A stretch of 64,000 bases of DNA from an uncultured Chloroflexia bacterium (GTDB lineage: Bacteria; Chloroflexota; Limnocylindria; Limnocylindrales; CSP1-4): assembly GCA_963718085.1 (NCBI GenBank), contig CAVQYA010000001.1, positions 196,811-260,810 on the forward strand, read 5' to 3'. The notes beneath the pieces are model-generated. The model was not told where the DNA came from and searched no databases. It saw only the letters and a list, made by a program, of their open reading frames with translations. Positions 11,902 to 30,301 of this stretch are shown here, one piece after another; positions within the stretch are counted from its first letter, which is position 1, and each line of letters starts with the position of its first letter. The translations under genes were made by a program, and so were the position numbers.

Positions 11902-12930
11902 ATGAGCGAGGGAGATCGGCCTCACGGACCTTCAGGCGAGGTCGTCGTCTACGAAACGCCCGATGGGCGCGCGCGGGTCGAAGTCGTCGTCGGGGACGAG
12001 ACGGTCTGGCTGACCCAGAGGCAGATGGCGGACCTGTTCGACGACCACGATCCGACAACGTCGGCTTGCACATCGAGAACGTCGTTCGCCGAGGGAGAGC
12101 TCGACGGAGGGGGCAACTATCGAGGATTCCTCGTAGTTCGATCCGAGGGAGGTCGTCAGGTCCGCCGGCGCATCCAGCACTACAACCTCGACGTGATCAT
12201 CTCCGTCGGCTACCGCGTCAAGTCCAGGCGCGGCACCCAGTTTCGAATCTGGGCGACGAACACGGTGCGGGATCACCTCATCCAGGGCTTCACGCTCAAC
12301 GAGAAGCGCCTGCTGGCGAGAGGCGTGGAGTTCGACCAGGCCGTCGCCCTGCTGTCATCGACGCTGCGCAACCAGGAGCTCGTCACCGACGAGGGCCAGG
12401 CCGTCCTCGAGGTGGTCCAGCGGTACGCGCGCTCGTGGCGGATGCTGCGCGCCTTCGACGAGGACCAGCTCTCGTCCGCTCCTGACGGGACCGCCGTCCC
12501 GATCGCCTCACTCGACATCGGGTCGGCGCGGGCGACGATCCGCACCCTTCGCGACGACCTGGTCGCGCGCGGCGAGAACCCGGGGATGCTCGGCCAGGAG
12601 CGCGGCGACGCCCTCGAGTCGGTCCTGCTCAACATCGAGCAGACGTTCGGCGGCGAGGCGCTCTACCCGACGATCGAGTCGCGGGCCGCGCACCTGCTCT
12701 ACTTCGTCATCAAGGACCACCCACTCTCCGACGGCAACAAGCGGACGGGGTCGCTGCTGTTCCTCGACTACCTGCGCCGGAACAGCGCGCTGCTGGGGTC
12801 CAACGGCCGGCCGCGTTTCTCGGACACCTCGCTCGTCGCGCTCGCGCTGCTCGTCGCCGAGAGCAAGGCGTCGCACAAGGATCTCGTGGTCCGCCTGATC
12901 CTCAACCTGCTGGCCGAGGATCGCCCGTAG
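11902..12930 (+). CDS. RhuM-family N-terminal domain fused to a Fic/DOC domain (HPLSDGNKRTG)
   Basis: The RhuM core (…SEGGRQV…YNLDVIISVGYRVKS.RGTQFRIWAT) is followed by a Fic motif HPxxDGNxR. A compensating −1/+1 indel pair at ~12052-12086 converts the expected …DNVGLHIENVFAEGEL into …DPTTSACTSRTSFAEGEL. Confidence 0.7.
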   Translation: MSEGDRPHGPSGEVVVYETPDGRARVEVVVGDETVWLTQRQMADLFDDHDPTTSACTSRTSFAEGELDGGGNYRGFLVVRSEGGRQVRRRIQHYNLDVIISVGYRVKSRRGTQFRIWATNTVRDHLIQGFTLNEKRLLARGVEFDQAVALLSSTLRNQELVTDEGQAVLEVVQRYARSWRMLRAFDEDQLSSAPDGTAVPIASLDIGSARATIRTLRDDLVARGENPGMLGQERGDALESVLLNIEQTFGGEALYPTIESRAAHLLYFVIKDHPLSDGNKRTGSLLFLDYLRRNSALLGSNGRPRFSDTSLVALALLVAESKASHKDLVVRLILNLLAEDRP

Positions 12931-13121: not shown

Positions 13122-13190
13122 GGTGTGATCCCGATTTGGCCGTGGCCTGTCGGATCAGGGCCGCGCCGATGCTGTGGAGGTCTGCCGCGC

Positions 13191-13580
13191 GCGTCACGAC
13201 CTGGGCGGCCACGCGCCCGGGTGCTTGCTAGACCTACTCGGCATACCGCGGTCCGGGGACCCAGCGACTGCTCGGCCTTCCTGCCGCTCGAGATCCGTCG
13301 CGACATCGAGAGCCGCGCGGACGAGCCGCGATGCCGCGCCCCTCGCTCCGGGCGGCGCAGCCGATCGGCCATGGTCTGCCTCGCGCGTCACGACCTGGGC
13401 GGCCACGCGCCCGGGTGCTTGCTAGACCTACTCGGCATACCGCGGTCCGGGGACCGAGCGACTGCTCGGCCTTCCTGCCGCTCGAGATCCGTCGCGACAT
13501 CGAGAGCCGCGCGGACGAGCCGCGATGCCGCGCCCCTCGCTCCGGGCGGCGCAGCCGATCGGCCATGGTCTGCCTCGCGC
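13191..13580. repeat. Direct repeat of a 195-bp unit ×2 (about 99% identical)
   Basis: Seen directly. GCGCGTCACGACCTGGGCGG recurs at 13191 and 13386. The whole unit is repeated. Confidence 0.9.
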
Positions 13581-13715
13581 CGCCCAGCGCACCCGATCGA
13601 CCATGGTCTGCCTCGCGCGGCCCAGCGCACCCGATCGACCATGGTCTGCCTCGCGCGGCCCAGCGCAGCCGATCGACCATGGTCTGCCTCGCGCGGCCCG
13701 TCGCAGCCGATCGGC
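13563..13715. repeat. Four tandem 38-bp units, each carrying the perfect palindrome GACCATGGTC next to CGATCG
   Basis: CCATGGTC recurs at 13563, 13601, 13639 and 13677. The array directly precedes the ligA start. It has no spacer-like unique sequence, so it is not a CRISPR. Confidence 0.85.
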
Positions 13716-13770
13716 CGCGGTCCCTCTCGCTCCGCGCGGCCCGGCCGATCGATCGATAGACTCCGGATCG

Positions 13771-16603
<2,833 letters not shown>

Positions 16604-16614
16604 GGGTGCCGGCA

Positions 16615-16642
16615 GTCACCGGTGCGAACCGGCACCGGTGAC
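16615..16642 (+). terminator. Terminator-like hairpin after ligA: perfect 11-bp inverted repeat GTCACCGGTGC-GAACCG-GCACCGGTGAC
   Basis: Seen directly. It lies 12 nt after the ligA stop. Confidence 0.55.
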
Positions 16643-16699
16643 TCGTGGAACTTTCGTACTGGCCTTGCAGTACGGGGTGGACCCTCGTACCATCCGCCC

Positions 16700-17386
16700 A
16701 TGGATACCTCCGGGAAGACGGGTCCTCGTCGGGTTGTCCAGGCCGGACAGGGACTTGTCGAATACGCACTTATCCTGGCTCTTATAGCAGTAGTCGCCAT
16801 TTCTGGAACTCTCTTCCTGGGCAAGGAGATTTCCAAGGTACTGGCGAACATGGGGTCAAGCGTCGGCGGGGTCGCCGGTGTGACGCAGACGGGGACGCAG
16901 ACCACCACGACGACGACGTCCGCCGAAGCCTGCAGGGCGGCCGGTAAGTACTGGTATCAGGACGCCTGCCACGACCAGAAGGGTGCCGCGAGCAACTACA
17001 AGACCGCCGACGACTGCTGGGCGGTCGGCTACTGGTGGCGTGAGAGTTCGAATGTTGTCCAATGCCGTGACAACAAGGGCTCGGCGGACGACTACTTGAA
17101 CCAGGCCGACTGCCAGAGGCCAACAGTCGGCTTCCACTGGTACAACGGCGACTGCCACGACAACTCTCCCGACGCGTGGGACATCAACAACAGCGGTGAC
17201 TGCGCGGCGTACAGCTTCTCCTGGTGGACCCTGGGAAAGTCCGCCCCCCCAAACGACGGCTGTCACCCGACCAGTCAGCTCGCCTATTCCTCCACCATGA
17301 ACAGGACGACCTGCGAGGCCAACGACTGGTGGTGGCATGACGTGTCCTGGCCCTCCAGCGACCACTGTGATTCCTCCCATCCCTAG
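16700..17386 (+). CDS. Flp/Fap-type pilin-like protein with a ~190-aa C-terminal Cys/Trp-rich repeat domain
   Basis: Leader MDTSGKTGPRRVVQAG, then G|QGLVEYALILALIAVVAISG (Flp motif with Glu +5, Tyr +6, hydrophobic helix). Five Cys-bracketed W/Y/D/N-rich modules follow. GC is visibly lower than the flanks. Confidence 0.6.
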   Translation: MDTSGKTGPRRVVQAGQGLVEYALILALIAVVAISGTLFLGKEISKVLANMGSSVGGVAGVTQTGTQTTTTTTSAEACRAAGKYWYQDACHDQKGAASNYKTADDCWAVGYWWRESSNVVQCRDNKGSADDYLNQADCQRPTVGFHWYNGDCHDNSPDAWDINNSGDCAAYSFSWWTLGKSAPPNDGCHPTSQLAYSSTMNRTTCEANDWWWHDVSWPSSDHCDSSHP

Positions 17387-17880
17387 TAGGGAGCGGCGTG
17401 ACCCGGCCCCGGAGCCCGGGTCCGCCATCATCGGGAGATCGCAACACTCTCGCGGGCCGGCGTAGAGCCCGTCGCGAACCCGGCCCGCCCGGCACCCACT
17501 GAGATCGAGCTGGTCCTCCCCGAGGGCCAGCTCCTTCGATTCCGGGCGGACTTGCGGTCACTGCCCGCCTCAATACGCAGGCCGGTCGTCCCGCCGGCCC
17601 CTGCGTCCTGGGTTCGAGGGCATTCGCCCGCCACCTTCCGACCGCGCGGCCCCGGCCGACCTCGGAGGACGAGTCGGCGCCCGCCCCGCTGGGCATCAGG
17701 CCTGACCCGCAGCCAATTCGGCGTCGGGGACCGGACCGATCACGGCGACCACGTCTCTCCGGCGAGCGACCGTGATCGGACTCAGGTCACAGGCTGAGGC
17801 GGAATTCACCCCCCGTCGTTCCATCTTCAACAGCCGACGGAGTGCCGATCGCGGCCCGAGAGGGCGATCGGCGGCCCCTG

Positions 17881-19098
17881 TCATCCGACGTAGTTGCCTT
17901 CCAGGAAGAGCGCCGTCATCAGTCCCAGGAACGTGAGCGACAGCAGCAGCCAACCCCTGTGGAAGAGTGGCCGGCGACCGGCGATCGCGAGCACAACGAA
18001 GCAGGGAAACAGGACAAGGAGGTACCTCATCGTCGACATCAGGGGCCAGGCCGTCTGCTGAGTCAGGGTGAGAGCGAGCTGCGGGACGACGTACAGCGAG
18101 TAGCTCGCGGGCAGGCGCCGGAGGCCGGCAATCGCCAGGGCGGTGAATCCGACGAGTGCCAGGGCGTTCAATAGGGTGATGGGGTCGTCGTGCCGGAATG
18201 CCCAGTCCAACGCCTGACCGATGACGTCCCAGGGAAGGCGCGCTCCGGTAGAGGCCCAGGTTGCGTGCGAGTCGAAGTAGGGCTGATCCAGCACGACGAC
18301 CGTATACGCAACGTACGAGAGGTAGCCGACCGCCGGGCTGGCCATCGCGATTGCCGGTGTCAGGTTGGGTCGGCCCAGGCGAGGGGTGCCCGGCTGCCGC
18401 GCCCGCCAGTAGTCGCGGAGCGCGACCGCTGCCTCCCACCCGATTGGCAGAACGAGCAGCAGTCCCTGCGGTCGGGTCAGCGCGGCGACCAGGCCGGCCA
18501 CGGCGGCGAGCCCCCAGCGATGACGTCGCGCCCCCACGATTGCCCACACCGCGCCGGCCAGGAAGAGCGCCTCCGTGAACGGCGCGAAGAAGAAGAAGGC
18601 AACCGGGAATACCGCGACGTAGAGGACGGCTCGGTCTGCCGTGGCGCCATCGAGATCTTCACGTACCAGTTGCCGGAGACCGGTGAGTCCGAGCACGAAG
18701 GCAACCGCGTTGACCACCAGGCCGGCCAGCGGGATGTCGCCGCCCAGGACGATCGATGCGACACGCATGAGGAACGGCAGGAGCGGAAAGAAGTTGGTGG
18801 AGGCCGTGCCTGCCTCGTAGCCGTAGGCCGCGATCTTCGCGTACCAGCAGGCGTCCCAGTGCTGCCAGACCCCGACGAGCGGGAAGGCGATCCCGCGATC
18901 GGCGAGCGGCGGGAAGGTTGTCCACCCGTTGATGACCAGGTCCGAGTTGCACGGGCCCGGCACCAGACCCTTCATCATGAGGAAGCCGGCGATCAACCCG
19001 AGGCCGATCCGGAGGACGAACCACAGCCGCACGGCGGCGGCAAGTCCCTCCGGAAGGCGATCGACACGTCGCCTGATCCTACCGATGAGGGCCTTCAT
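17881..19098 (-). CDS. Polytopic membrane glycosyltransferase (PIG-V / DUF2029-like mannosyltransferase family)
   Basis: About 10 predicted TM segments, with the DACWY and NFFPLLP motifs typical of actinobacterial PIG-V-like mannosyltransferases. The family call is tentative. Confidence 0.5.
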   Translation of the reverse strand: MKALIGRIRRRVDRLPEGLAAAVRLWFVLRIGLGLIAGFLMMKGLVPGPCNSDLVINGWTTFPPLADRGIAFPLVGVWQHWDACWYAKIAAYGYEAGTASTNFFPLLPFLMRVASIVLGGDIPLAGLVVNAVAFVLGLTGLRQLVREDLDGATADRAVLYVAVFPVAFFFFAPFTEALFLAGAVWAIVGARRHRWGLAAVAGLVAALTRPQGLLLVLPIGWEAAVALRDYWRARQPGTPRLGRPNLTPAIAMASPAVGYLSYVAYTVVVLDQPYFDSHATWASTGARLPWDVIGQALDWAFRHDDPITLLNALALVGFTALAIAGLRRLPASYSLYVVPQLALTLTQQTAWPLMSTMRYLLVLFPCFVVLAIAGRRPLFHRGWLLLSLTFLGLMTALFLEGNYVG

Positions 19099-19532: not shown

Positions 19533-20889
19533 ATGACGGCCACGCCGACCTCGGGCCTCGTCGACGACCGGGGCGCGACAGGGGCTGATCCCGGCGAGCC
19601 GGCCGTCCCGTCGTCGCGGCGGCGTCGCCTGTTCGAGCGCATCCGGCGGAGCCTGGGCGATCCGAGGGTGCTCGTTCGCGCTGCTGCTGATCGCGGCCCT
19701 GATCGTGCGGATCGCGTGGCTGACGGTGCCCCAGGGGTCGCTCATCTTCGACGAGTCCTACTACGTCAACGCGGCGCGGGTGCTGCTCGGCTGGACCGTC
19801 CCGGCCGACGCTCCGTACGCGGGCGCACCCATCGGGCTGGATCCCAACAGCGAGCATCCGCCGCTCGGGAAGCTGCTGATGGCGCTGTCGATGGCCGTCT
19901 TCGGCGACAACGGCCTGGGCTGGCGGCTGCCCAGCGTCATCGCCGGGATGATCGCGCTGGTCGCGGTGTTCGGGATCGTTCGCGCCACCGGGGAGTCCGC
20001 GCGACTCGCGCTTCTCGCCGTGGCCTTCCTCGCCTTCGAGAACCTCACGCTGGTCCACGGCCGGATCGGGACCCTGGACATGCTGGTCCTCGCGCCGATT
20101 CTGGTGGGCGCCTGGCTGGCCCTGCGCGGCCGGTGGGCCGCGGCGGGAGCGGCAACCGGTCTCGGGATGCTGATGAAGCTGACCGCGCTGTACGGCCTGC
20201 TGGCGCTGCTGATCATGCTGGCAGTCGCGCTCTGGGTGACGTGGCGTCGACAGCGCCGTCTGCGATTCCCGGATCTGCGCCCGGCCGCGATGGCGCTGAT
20301 CGCTTTCTCGATCGTCACCATCGGAGGCCTGTGGCTGCTCGACATGCGGTTCTCGAGCTACGCCAACCCGGTCGAGCACCTGCAGCACATGATCCAGTAC
20401 GGGGCCAGCCTGGCCCGGGGTGCGGCCGAGCCGGGGGTCTGCGCCGGCGCAGACAGTTCCCCGCTGCAGTGGCTCTTCAACGAGTGCGAGATGACCTACC
20501 TGCGCGTGAACGAGACGGTGGCGAGCGGAGAAGTGATCGTGTCTGTCCGCTCCACGATCGACTTCCGCGGCGCGATGAACCCGATCCTGATCGGCTCCCT
20601 GCCCGCCGCGTTCGCGGTCGCCGGCTGGCTCGCCTGGAAGCGGCGCAGCCGCCTGGCCGGCTGGAGCCTCGTCTGGGCGGCCGCCAACTACCTTCCGTAC
20701 GTGGCGATGGCGCTCGTCTCGCAGCGGGTGACGTACATCTTCTACTTCCTGCCGGTCGTCCCGGCTCTCGCCGTGGCGGCCGCCCTCCTCCTGCGTCGCT
20801 GGCGCCTGCCGAGGTTCGTGACCGTCGCGTACGTGGCCCTCTACATCGTCGGCTTCGCGGCGTACTTCCCGTTCCGCCAGATCCCGTGA
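19533..20889 (+). CDS. Protein O-mannosyltransferase / PMT-family (GT39-like) membrane glycosyltransferase, with an apparent +1 frameshift at ~19673
   Basis: …LIFDESYYVNAARVLLGW…PIGLDPNSEHPPLGKLLMAL is the PMT signature. The N-terminal 46 aa from ATG 19533 are in the adjacent frame. One extra G in CTCGTTCGCG joins them. Confidence 0.65.
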
Positions 20890-29995: not shown

Positions 29996-30301
29996 ATGGG
30001 GACCCTCACCCGCGCCGATGTCGAGCATGTCGCGCACCTCGCCCGCCTCGGCCTGGCCGACGAGGAGCTGGCGCGCCTCGAGGGGCAGCTCAACCACATC
30101 CTCGAGCAGTACGAGATACTGGCGCGGCTCGACACGGACGCCATCCCGCCTACTGCCCAGACGATCGAACTGGAGAGCATCCTCCGCGAGGATGTCGCGC
30201 GGCCGTCGCTGAGCGTCGACGAGGCGCTCGCCAACGTGGCCGAGCGGTACGGCGACCACGTCGTGGTGCCCGCCATCCTCGGCGGCGAGCAGGCGAGCTG
30301 A
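29996..30301 (+). CDS. gatC: Glu-tRNA(Gln)/Asp-tRNA(Asn) amidotransferase subunit C
   Basis: LTRADVEHVAHLARLGL…EELARLEGQLNHILEQ is the GatC signature. Confidence 0.85.
   Translation: MGTLTRADVEHVAHLARLGLADEELARLEGQLNHILEQYEILARLDTDAIPPTAQTIELESILREDVARPSLSVDEALANVAERYGDHVVVPAILGGEQAS

Follow-up and report, generated by a model that had tools for sequence, protein, structure and literature searches.

What is a Flp-type pilin doing with a long tail rich in Cys and Trp, encoded by itself among core chromosomal genes? The question is raised by the gene that we call flpX (positions 16700-17386, + strand), in a soil Chloroflexota (Limnocylindria) chromosome, contig CAVQYA010000001.1. We analysed a stretch of 64,000 nucleotides around it, referred to below as the window. 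The product, FlpX, consists in order of a 16-residue leader, a Flp helix, a Thr-rich linker and five Cys-bracketed, Trp-rich mini-repeats. Our preferred answer, on which our own judgement is evenly divided, is that Tad pili display FlpX as a modular pilin of type IVc (Flp/Tad).

The flpX gene and its start codon

The open reading frame (ORF) extends from stop to stop over positions 16622-17386 (+), with an ATG at 16700 and a stop codon at 17384-17386, and encodes a product of 228 aa. The frame is intact and agrees with that of its homologues, although the frame of the neighboring ligA gene is broken. The first-pass annotation of this DNA had allowed that the ORF might be an assembly chimera; this can be set aside, as the identical architecture occurs in about 10 independent metagenome or metagenome-assembled genome (MAG) assemblies. 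Its description of the gene as solitary is also borne out, with only one Flp motif in the whole window. The N-terminal part of FlpX is laid out as follows.

16700..16747, + strand: class III (prepilin) leader MDTSGKTGPRRVVQAG, residues 1-16; predicted cleavage after G16, motif G/XXXXEY
16748..16864, + strand: Flp module QGLVEYALILALIAVVAISGTLFLGKEISKVLANMGSSV, residues 17-55; predicted single alpha-helix
16865..16924, + strand: Gly/Thr-rich linker GGVAGVTQTGTQTTTTTTSA, residues 56-75; DNA homology with relatives breaks here

Mature FlpX would have 212 residues, of which 173 lie beyond the Flp helix and form an appendage of about 17 kDa. The extension had been estimated at about 190 aa, which is too long: the measured 173 aa comprise the 20-aa linker and about 153 aa of repeats.

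In the public record of this protein (P0001) the start is put at Met51, which gives 178 aa and omits the pilin part. We consider this start almost certainly wrong, and the ATG at 16700 the true one, on four grounds. In about 10 independent assemblies (P0002-P0011, P0025) the first 55 codons share the frame of the repeats; a Cys-paired domain needs export; and neither ATG, at 16700 or at Met51, is preceded by a Shine-Dalgarno sequence. Fourthly, between FlpX and the most distant family member, at locus L001, the N-terminal codons show 24 synonymous and 14 non-synonymous differences, and thus the Flp segment is translated. Annotation from Met51 conceals the pilin nature of the protein. A look-up of the annotated 178-aa product returned no entry, and exact-protein scans of the GTDB species genomes and JGI metagenome contigs, two sets that do not include the source genome, found no close relative.

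A complete Flp pilin module

The predicted cleavage context, ...VVQAG16|Q-G-L-V-E21-Y22, places Gly at -1, Glu at +5 and Tyr at +6. Residues G16, Q17, G18, L19, V20, E21 and Y22 are identical in 11 homologues, and the leader is invariant or nearly so. The hydrophobic stretch, ALILALIAVVAISG, lies within a hydrophobic-then-polar helix, which AlphaFold2 (AF2) models as a single helix over residues 17-51. We searched the PDB with a profile of 13 N-termini taken from the extended family and from ordinary Limnocylindria Flp proteins. It matched the Caulobacter Tad pilin over mature residues 4-39 (8u1k, E=1.9e-7; 8u2b, E=7e-7) and gave no other meaningful match, while the FlpX sequence by itself reached E=0.015 against the same pilin. 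The Pfam family Flp_Fap (PF04964) matches six of 11 family members at E<=0.01 (best E=4.8e-6), and JGI annotates homologues of FlpX as Flp. Motif, modeled helix and profile match together agree with the first-pass description of the N-terminus (G|QGLVEY, Glu at +5, hydrophobic helix), and on these sequence comparisons a genuine Flp-type (type IVc) prepilin module is supported.

The module is also complete. Ordinary Limnocylindria Flp proteins terminate exactly at the position of V55 (...VGNSV-stop), and FlpX, colinear with such a pilin over its full length, is thus an entire Flp pilin to which a C-terminal part has been added. Among 185 Flp-motif ORFs in related loci the median length is about 56 aa, and the 228-aa precursor of FlpX falls outside the usual range of about 40-90 aa. 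As for other pilin families, TadE (PF07811) had no match in FlpX even at E<=10, nor did Pfam report the N_methyl signal (IPR012902/PF07963). The weak Pfam signals on FlpX were Flp_Fap, Furin-like_2 and Class_IIIsignal (E=0.45).

Five Cys-bracketed repeat modules

All ten Cys residues of FlpX are in the C-terminal part, arranged in five C-x(11-19)-C brackets (78-90, 106-122, 138-152, 168-188 and 205-223). The five tandem aromatic modules with ten Cys reported in the first pass can be read directly from the sequence. They are given here with their scores against the hidden Markov model (HMM) described below and with the AF2 result, including the predicted local distance difference test score (pLDDT).

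16919..16981, + strand: repeat module 1, residues 74-94, Cys78-Cys90; HMM 26.9 bits; helix and hairpin, pLDDT about 96
16988..17077, + strand: repeat module 2, residues 97-126, Cys106-Cys122; HMM 5.8 bits; helix and hairpin, pLDDT 86-95
17084..17167, + strand: repeat module 3, residues 129-156, Cys138-Cys152; HMM 24.7 bits; helix and hairpin, pLDDT about 87
17174..17275, + strand: repeat module 4, residues 159-192, Cys168-Cys188, with a long hairpin loop; HMM 8.0 bits; pLDDT low, 46-72
17285..17386, + strand: repeat module 5, residues 196-227, Cys205-Cys223, with C-terminal HP and stop; HMM 10.1 bits; helix and hairpin, pLDDT 54-67

The repeat is a unit of 26-30 residues with the consensus CEDYTTQADCEAAGCYWYNGACHSTP and the pattern D-C-x-A-G-x-Y-W-Y-x(2-14)-C-H. 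An HMM built from 169 modules of unrelated, non-Flp proteins matched all five FlpX units with 52.8 bits, whereas the maximum among 200 composition-preserving shuffles was 4.2 bits, so the repeats exceed what chance would give. In the AF2 model every unit opens with a short helix, on which the first Cys sits, and continues as a beta-hairpin that bears the second Cys on its second strand. Modeled alone, the C-terminal part had a pLDDT of 75.4 and a predicted template modeling score (pTM) of 0.54, with units 1-3 at 86-96. The alignments behind the structure predictions were shallow, at 7-11 sequences. From these models, the two Cys of each module probably pair with each other, giving one disulfide per module.

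Searching 1.84 billion representative proteins with residues 74-228 (phmmer) gave 34 matches at E<=1e-3, seven of them at E<=1e-10. Two of the 34, P0024 and P0025, belong to the Flp family; the others are mostly large proteins with 3-10 tandem units. Many of the large repeat-bearing proteins (P0019-P0050) have a C-terminal membrane anchor, and a few have weak, sub-threshold matches to PKD or beta-propeller-type domains. The FlpX units are the two-Cys form, and many of the repeat proteins carry four Cys per unit. One carrier comes from a Candidatus Paceibacterota MAG. The top distant match, P0018, was rejected as a relative, its repeat being a different, SprB-like unit.

The first-pass expectation that the C-terminal part matches no curated family proved correct: scans of FlpX and of its repeat-bearing relatives found no model for the repeat in Pfam or NCBIfam. 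The structure prediction and fold search that it had proposed for this region gave the helix-hairpin units described above and no significant fold match, the best Foldseek E-value being at least 2.9. A sequence search of the PDB with the repeat profile found no match. The same was true of a two-module alignment profile run against a word index of 5.8 billion proteins, and no repeat-bearing relative was seen in viral contigs. A widespread extracellular repeat with neither a family model nor a structural match is thereby brought to light.

A hypervariable cassette between conserved flanks

Two closely related loci, L082 and L085, compare with the window as follows.

ligA 3' end: 88% identity in L082, 92% in L085
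Intergenic region: 74% in L082, 85% in L085
Flp-coding 171 nt: 99.4% in L082, 98.8% in L085
Repeat domain: no detectable DNA similarity in L082 or L085
About 150 nt past the stop: 90% in L082, 89% in L085

DNA similarity stops within the linker, at about 16870 for L082 and about 16921 for L085. As proteins, the repeat domains of close relatives are about 30% identical, and the number of modules across the family ranges from one to about six. With the Flp part and both flanks conserved and the repeat DNA unalignable, the repeat domain must be regarded as a hypervariable cassette. The Flp segment is more conserved than its own flanks (about 99%, compared to 74-92%).

Three sources of such variation were considered and rejected. 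Silent cassettes were not supported, as tblastn found no other copy in the window; a diversity-generating retroelement was dismissed on the absence of a reverse transcriptase among the scanned window ORFs; and a recent internal duplication does not fit with intragenic DNA repeats that are only 65-85% identical over 13-30 nt. Cassette replacement at flpX may instead proceed by homologous exchange between strains. Hypervariability in an exposed domain of a pilin speaks for strong selection of a biotic kind, exerted by phages, predators or neighbors.

Relatives and the Tad machinery of the lineage

The best 80 loci related to the N-terminal module are all from Chloroflexota MAGs, about one quarter of them labeled Candidatus Limnocylindria or Limnocylindrales and most of the others "uncultured Chloroflexia". 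The carrier class, Limnocylindria, is known here only from soil and sediment MAGs. At 41-43 of these 80 loci, short and often tandem flp genes are followed by rcpC/cpaB, REC-CpaE, cpaF, tadB and tadC, and CpaF is mostly 83-92% identical across the tad-bearing loci. The operon at L030:10001-17640 contains a HisKA_3 kinase gene, tandem short flp genes, rcpC/cpaB, REC-CpaE, cpaF, tadB, tadC, a DUF192 gene and a GT87 gene; no secretin was seen in it. Two soil metagenome contigs without an assigned taxonomy (L125 and L128) have short A24 peptidases in the neighborhood of flp genes.

The MAG that carries this operon, MFD05442.bin.2.238, also carries a solitary, one-module extended Flp gene (L002), so that an extended Flp encoded by itself and a standard Tad system occur in one genome. 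Such extended genes always lie outside the tad operons: L002 is between a GGDEF gene and ymdB, L039 is near an acid phosphatase gene, and those of L001 and the window follow ligA. Multi-module extended Flp proteins are rare in metagenomes. A commoner, one-module extended Flp (mature length 86-80 aa) has a Pro/Thr/Ala linker followed by C-TAAGY-x-W-x-KPKPAH-C; it is present at L002:10019, L039:10019, L089:1849 and L159:371, in several Limnocylindria MAGs and soil contigs and in other contexts. Our literature search found no description of the repeat sequence, of Limnocylindria pili, or of Flp pilin, Chloroflexi and Tad together.

Upstream signals and base composition

Two features lie between ligA and flpX.

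16615..16644, + strand: hairpin with a 12-bp stem, AGUCACCGGUGC-GAACCG-GCACCGGUGACU, 12 nt past the ligA stop and without a U-tract
16665..16693, + strand: promoter-like TTGCAG - 17 nt - TACCAT, 6 nt upstream of the ATG at 16700

Positions 16600-16702 fold with -54.1 kcal/mol (z=-3.7), and the hairpin core GGTGC...GCACCG is unchanged across five to six related loci. A terminator scan called no canonical site at 16615-16644, and the only Rfam match in 16300-18000 was a sub-threshold chance match on the hairpin. The hairpin is possibly a ligA terminator or an insulator. The first-pass annotation had placed flpX between a ligA terminator hairpin and a convergent glycosyltransferase gene. The end of ligA (BRCT, stop at 16601-16603), the hairpin and the convergent gene at 17881-19098 (-) are all there.

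Both hexamers of the promoter-like element are kept at six loci (TTGyAG/TTGAAG and TACCAT/TACTAT) with a variable spacer, and it is this conservation that suggests a flpX promoter. A generic sigma-70 promoter scan did not call TTGCAG/TACCAT, which has 7 of 12 matches. Given its position and the missing Shine-Dalgarno sequence, the flpX mRNA could be leaderless, with its 5' end at or near A16700.

The first-pass annotation had described a lower-GC islet, with G+C (GC) content of 50-60% against flanks of about 72%. The drop is real: the flpX ORF has 61.9% GC (61-63% in 300-nt windows), and ligA upstream 75-81%. Only the first 165 nt of flpX, at about 55%, fall within the range given. GC at third codon positions (GC3) is 0.58 in the Flp-coding part (16700-16864) and 0.85 in the repeat part, compared to 0.80-0.95 for the genes of this genome and 0.92+-0.06 for 179 ordinary flp genes. 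Residues 76-228 include 18 Asp, 17 Ser, 12 Trp, 11 Asn and 8 Tyr. The drop arises because the Flp part has a low GC3 and because the repeat part, with its normal GC3, is rich in aromatic residues, Asn and Asp and so has an AT-leaning amino-acid composition. The codon and GC profile carries no signature of foreign DNA. We therefore reject a foreign islet, as the repeat part has a host-like GC3 and the gene is at a conserved ligA-gatC junction. For the combination of low GC3 and high conservation in the Flp segment there are three possible causes: the 5' end of a leaderless mRNA may be constrained, the segment may serve to anchor recombination, or it may have been swept recently.

The ligA-gatC junction

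The window is core chromosome, with groEL, pcrA/uvrD, ligA, flpX, two GT-C glycosyltransferase genes, an AbiE/HTH_17/AAA_14 island, gatC, gatA, an aminotransferase gene, GGDEF, GH130 and GH1 genes, ABC transporters, gatB and dnaE. Directly after flpX there is a remnant of gatC.

17435..17545, + strand: decayed duplicate of the first ~35 gatC codons (~110 nt), 89-93% identical in L082-L085 and conserved in five related loci

Aligned to the starts of the true gatC genes, in L001 and in the window, the remnant scores 49, against a shuffle maximum of 27. The conserved 150 bp past the flpX stop had been considered as an RNA element; we reject this, since the stretch is the decayed duplicate of the gatC 5' end. 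Its position directly after flpX places flpX at the old ligA-gatC junction. The true gatC of the window is at about 29999-30301, and the intervening ~12 kb (about 17.6 to 29.9 kb) looks as if it had been inserted later into the 5' end of gatC. This stretch contains two AAA_14+DUF4143 genes, AbiEii/AbiEi pairs, and two genes each of the GT-C and HTH_17 types; no integrase was seen in it. The ligA-flpX-gatC junction is conserved and shared with related genomes. L001, on a related MAG contig, is syntenic and reads uvrD-ligA-flpX(127 aa)-PMT_2-gatA. The junction is one that accumulates accessory genes. A RhuM/Fic-domain gene is upstream of ligA in the window (11902-12930), and a Fic gene is directly 3' of the flpX homologue in L083 (1235-2314).

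The ligA gene itself (13525-16603) is spread over at least three frames, and the assembly probably contains indel errors. Its parts are these.

13525-14751: ligA fragment, with a ~190-aa Pro/Ala/Glu-rich tail inserted in the adenylation domain
14787-16205: ligA fragment, adenylation, OB and Zn-finger domains
~15997-16100: ligA fragment
15707-16603: ligA fragment, HhH and BRCT

The fragmentation points to long-read indel errors or to a real pseudogene; ligA is fragmented likewise in L001. Tandem DNA repeats lie upstream of and extend into the ligA start, one with a 194-nt unit (x2.1, 99% matches, 13179-13580) and one with a 38-nt unit (x5.7, 13535-13752).

The linker and its possible glycosylation

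Residues 56-75 are likely a flexible, O-glycosylatable spacer. The AF2 pLDDT is below 50 for residues 50-71, where the linker is predicted to be disordered, and the homologues have Thr-, Pro/Thr- or Gly-rich linkers that differ in length. The Thr-rich linker, including its TQTGTQTTTTTT stretch, would probably be O-glycosylated by the neighboring PMT-like GT-C enzymes.

17881..19098, - strand: GT-C glycosyltransferase, PIG-V/Mannosyl_trans2-like (PF04188, E=5.6e-5, 23.1 bits against a cut-off of 22.4), convergent to flpX
19705..20889, + strand: PMT_2/GT87-type GT-C glycosyltransferase (Pfam PMT_2, E=1.4e-16; 73% identity to L001 by tblastn)

The first of these is a candidate partner for glycosylation of the linker, and the second a candidate protein O-mannosyltransferase acting on its Thr residues. 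In L001 the PMT_2 homologue is directly 3' of the flpX homologue. The GT87 gene within the L030 tad operon hints that Flp glycosylation is part of the Tad system.

Weighing the explanations

If FlpX is a modular Tad pilin, transcription of its gene would probably begin at a promoter of its own and give a leaderless mRNA, and the prepilin would be inserted into the membrane via its hydrophobic helix. A TadV/CpaA-type A24 peptidase encoded elsewhere would remove the 16-residue leader after Gly16. CpaF, TadB, TadC and RcpC would then polymerize the N-terminal 39 residues of the mature protein, a complete Flp helix, into Tad pili. The linker and the five-repeat rod of about 150 residues would project outward, either at the tip or as a sparse decoration of the shaft, because the pilin C-terminus is on the filament surface in Tad pili. 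The exposed rod, rich in Trp, Tyr, Asp and Asn, could then be a strain-specific surface for binding or recognition. Its apparent exchange as a cassette between conserved flanks in close relatives would be consistent with diversifying selection on an exposed structure. An adhesin or carbohydrate-binding role of the repeat domain is conceivable. Ten paired Cys, a repeat common to large membrane-anchored proteins and the AF2 helix-hairpins support an extracytoplasmic character for the extension. That orphan Flp pilin genes can be functional follows from Myxococcus kilP, an orphan gene from a genome-wide search that supplies the Kil Tad pilus with its major pilin (PMC12075869).

Several points weigh against this explanation. 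A check against the Flp_Fap model (PF04964), named in the first-pass annotation, came out sub-threshold: FlpX matched over residues 20-53 (E=0.0033) with a score of 17.6 bits, where the gathering threshold is 32.2. The statement in the same annotation that no tad or cpa genes are nearby is true of the entire window. A Pfam scan of 51 ORFs (those with coding-like codon-position GC and other long ORFs) found no tad component or A24 peptidase in the 64 kb, and tblastn with RcpC, CpaE, CpaF, TadB and TadC from a related tad operon found none at E<=0.01. The fold and sequence searches of the repeat domain gave no pointer to a ligand, and the disulfide pairing and module fold are predictions from an alignment of seven sequences. 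In other proteins the repeat resembles a stalk that joins a head domain to a membrane anchor, and it may be structural rather than ligand-binding. The link to glycosyltransferases is weak, with the nearest such gene convergent to flpX and a Fic gene as the downstream neighbor in L083. We found no report in the literature of an assembled Flp pilin with a C-terminal domain, and the helix-only packing of Tad pili may have room for an appendage of 17 kDa at the tip alone.

Going further, we tentatively suggest, as a possibility that we ourselves doubt, that FlpX and its relatives are an undescribed class of "display" Flp pilins. Each would join a complete Tad pilin helix, via an O-glycosylated linker, to a swappable array of helix-hairpin repeats stapled by disulfides, with exchange anchored on the ultra-conserved, codon-atypical 5' segment and the conserved 3' flank. 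They would give the Tad pili of Limnocylindria hypervariable surfaces that are specific to the strain (for adhesion, kin recognition or phage evasion), and the repeat would be a new, widespread extracellular fold family.

The alternative that survives best, although we think it rather unlikely, is that FlpX is a cell-surface glycoprotein that borrows a pilin-type signal. With or without cleavage of the leader, the helix would then stay in the cytoplasmic membrane or form a short pseudopilus stub, the glycosylated linker would span the wall, and the rod would sit on the cell body and not on long pili. The gene is unlinked to any tad operon, its presumed leaderless, own-promoter arrangement suggests regulation apart from such an operon, the repeat forms a stalk beside a membrane anchor in other proteins, and long flexible linkers are typical of wall-spanning regions. 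An analogue is the "bindosome" of archaea, in which sugar-binding proteins carry class III signal peptides. The Flp part, however, keeps all of the positions conserved in polymerizing Flp pilins, including Glu5 and Tyr6, and is colinear with the complete ordinary pilin, for which a plain anchor would have no need, and its sequence conservation is extreme.

It is improbable that FlpX is an alternative major pilin, replacing the short Flp under some conditions so that every subunit of the filament bears a rod. The complete Flp helix would allow it, the flexible 20-residue linker could let the domains splay outward, and the replacement of an exposed domain between strains resembles major-pilin variation; moreover, the major pilins of type IVa and IVb pili bear globular domains of 100-150 residues (PMC10710030). 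Such a filament would nonetheless need dense 17-kDa appendages on a 5-nm, helix-only structure. The L030 operon has its own tandem short flp genes, which makes the extended gene of L002 an extra copy (in this one MAG), and the rarity of multi-module versions in metagenomes also argues against it.

A secreted, leader-cleaved Cys-rich peptide or toxin, bacteriocin-like and using its Flp-like leader for export only, is very improbable. FlpX is small, rich in Cys, provided with a cleavable leader and as hypervariable between strains as many toxins are, but the hydrophobic helix would stay on the mature protein after cleavage at G16 and prevent release, no immunity, modification or dedicated export genes are present in the window, and the repeat is found mainly in large structural surface proteins. 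Barely credible, finally, is a correct 178-aa product with the Flp-like stretch untranslated, whether a cytoplasmic Cys/Trp-rich protein or a pseudogene: the start in the public record and the frameshifts of ligA, which show that the assembly has errors, are in its favor, but more than 10 independent assemblies keep the 55 N-terminal codons in frame and conserve their protein sequence, with many synonymous changes among the differences from more distant members, ten paired Cys are unlikely in the cytoplasm, no convincing ribosome-binding site is found at a suitable distance before Met51, and the promoter-like element is just before the ATG at 16700.

Comparison with known systems

The repeat domain can be compared to the furin-like repeats of R-spondins (PF15913), in which short tandem units, each based on beta-hairpins stapled by disulfides, likewise make up an elongated rod. 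PF15913 was the top, non-significant match to FlpX both by sequence (E=0.02, 15.6 bits against a cut-off of 28) and by Foldseek (E>=2.9). The number and spacing of the Cys residues differ, however, and each FlpX unit opens with a short, Cys-bearing helix. In its pattern of variation, the locus is like pilE/pilS of Neisseria and the pilin alleles of Pseudomonas, where a conserved 5' pilin segment is also joined to an exchanged C-terminal part; unlike the Neisseria system, the flpX window has no silent cassettes.

With the major pilins of the Flp/Tad type, such as Caulobacter PilA (8u1k/8u2b), FlpX shares the G/XXXXEY motif, Glu5, Tyr6 and one continuous hydrophobic-then-polar helix. Known Tad pilins consist of the helix only, without a globular domain, and their C-terminal half forms the filament surface (PMC10710030). 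They are also small, with 45 mature residues in Caulobacter and precursors of 59-97 aa in Myxococcus (PMC10710030, PMC12075869). FlpX differs in its 212 mature residues, 173 of them past the helix, and in a sub-threshold Pfam match from the single sequence.

The specificity of Tad pili is presently explained by tip complexes of the TadE/F/G type (PMC12075869), with the Flp pilins seen as minimal pilins (PMC10710030). The tip proteins TadE, TadF and TadG, and KilL, KilM and KilN of Myxococcus, have variable, disulfide-rich C-terminal domains and interchangeable paralogues, some of which are encoded off the main tad cluster (PMC12075869). FlpX would be like them, if our proposal holds, in being a pilin-like protein that exposes a variable, disulfide-rich C-terminal part. 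The tip proteins, however, have a fold of alpha1 plus beta domain and form heterotrimers from three adjacent genes, whereas FlpX has a Flp-type helix, no PF07811 match and no neighboring partner genes, and bears a repeat rod in place of a globular head.

The closest parallel in design is with the modular type IV pilins, among them PilB (von Willebrand factor A module) and PilC (lectin module) of Streptococcus sanguinis and CofB of enterotoxigenic Escherichia coli. They are thought to be located at the tip, or on the shaft if the linker is flexible, and they are the main route to added adhesive functions (PMC8179133). FlpX shares with them the plan of a class III signal pilin module (residues 1-55), a linker (56-75) and a non-pilin module (76-228). 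The survey that defined the modular pilins was based on IPR012902 and does not mention Flp (PMC8179133); its members have a globular pilin domain, whereas FlpX has a bare, 39-residue Flp helix without the N-methyl signal. FlpX also departs from them in that its graft is an uncurated Cys-repeat rod and in that no pilus locus is nearby. The first-pass annotation did not recognize the design. Modular pilins and variable Tad tips are in fact precedents for it, although our literature search found no modular pilin built on a Flp module, and FlpX is outside both the modular-pilin set and the TadE/F/G set. If our reading is right, FlpX is a natural scaffold that shows that the C-terminus of Flp can carry cargo, and the fusion of a Flp helix to a displayed domain extends the modular-pilin principle (PMC8179133) to type IVc pili.

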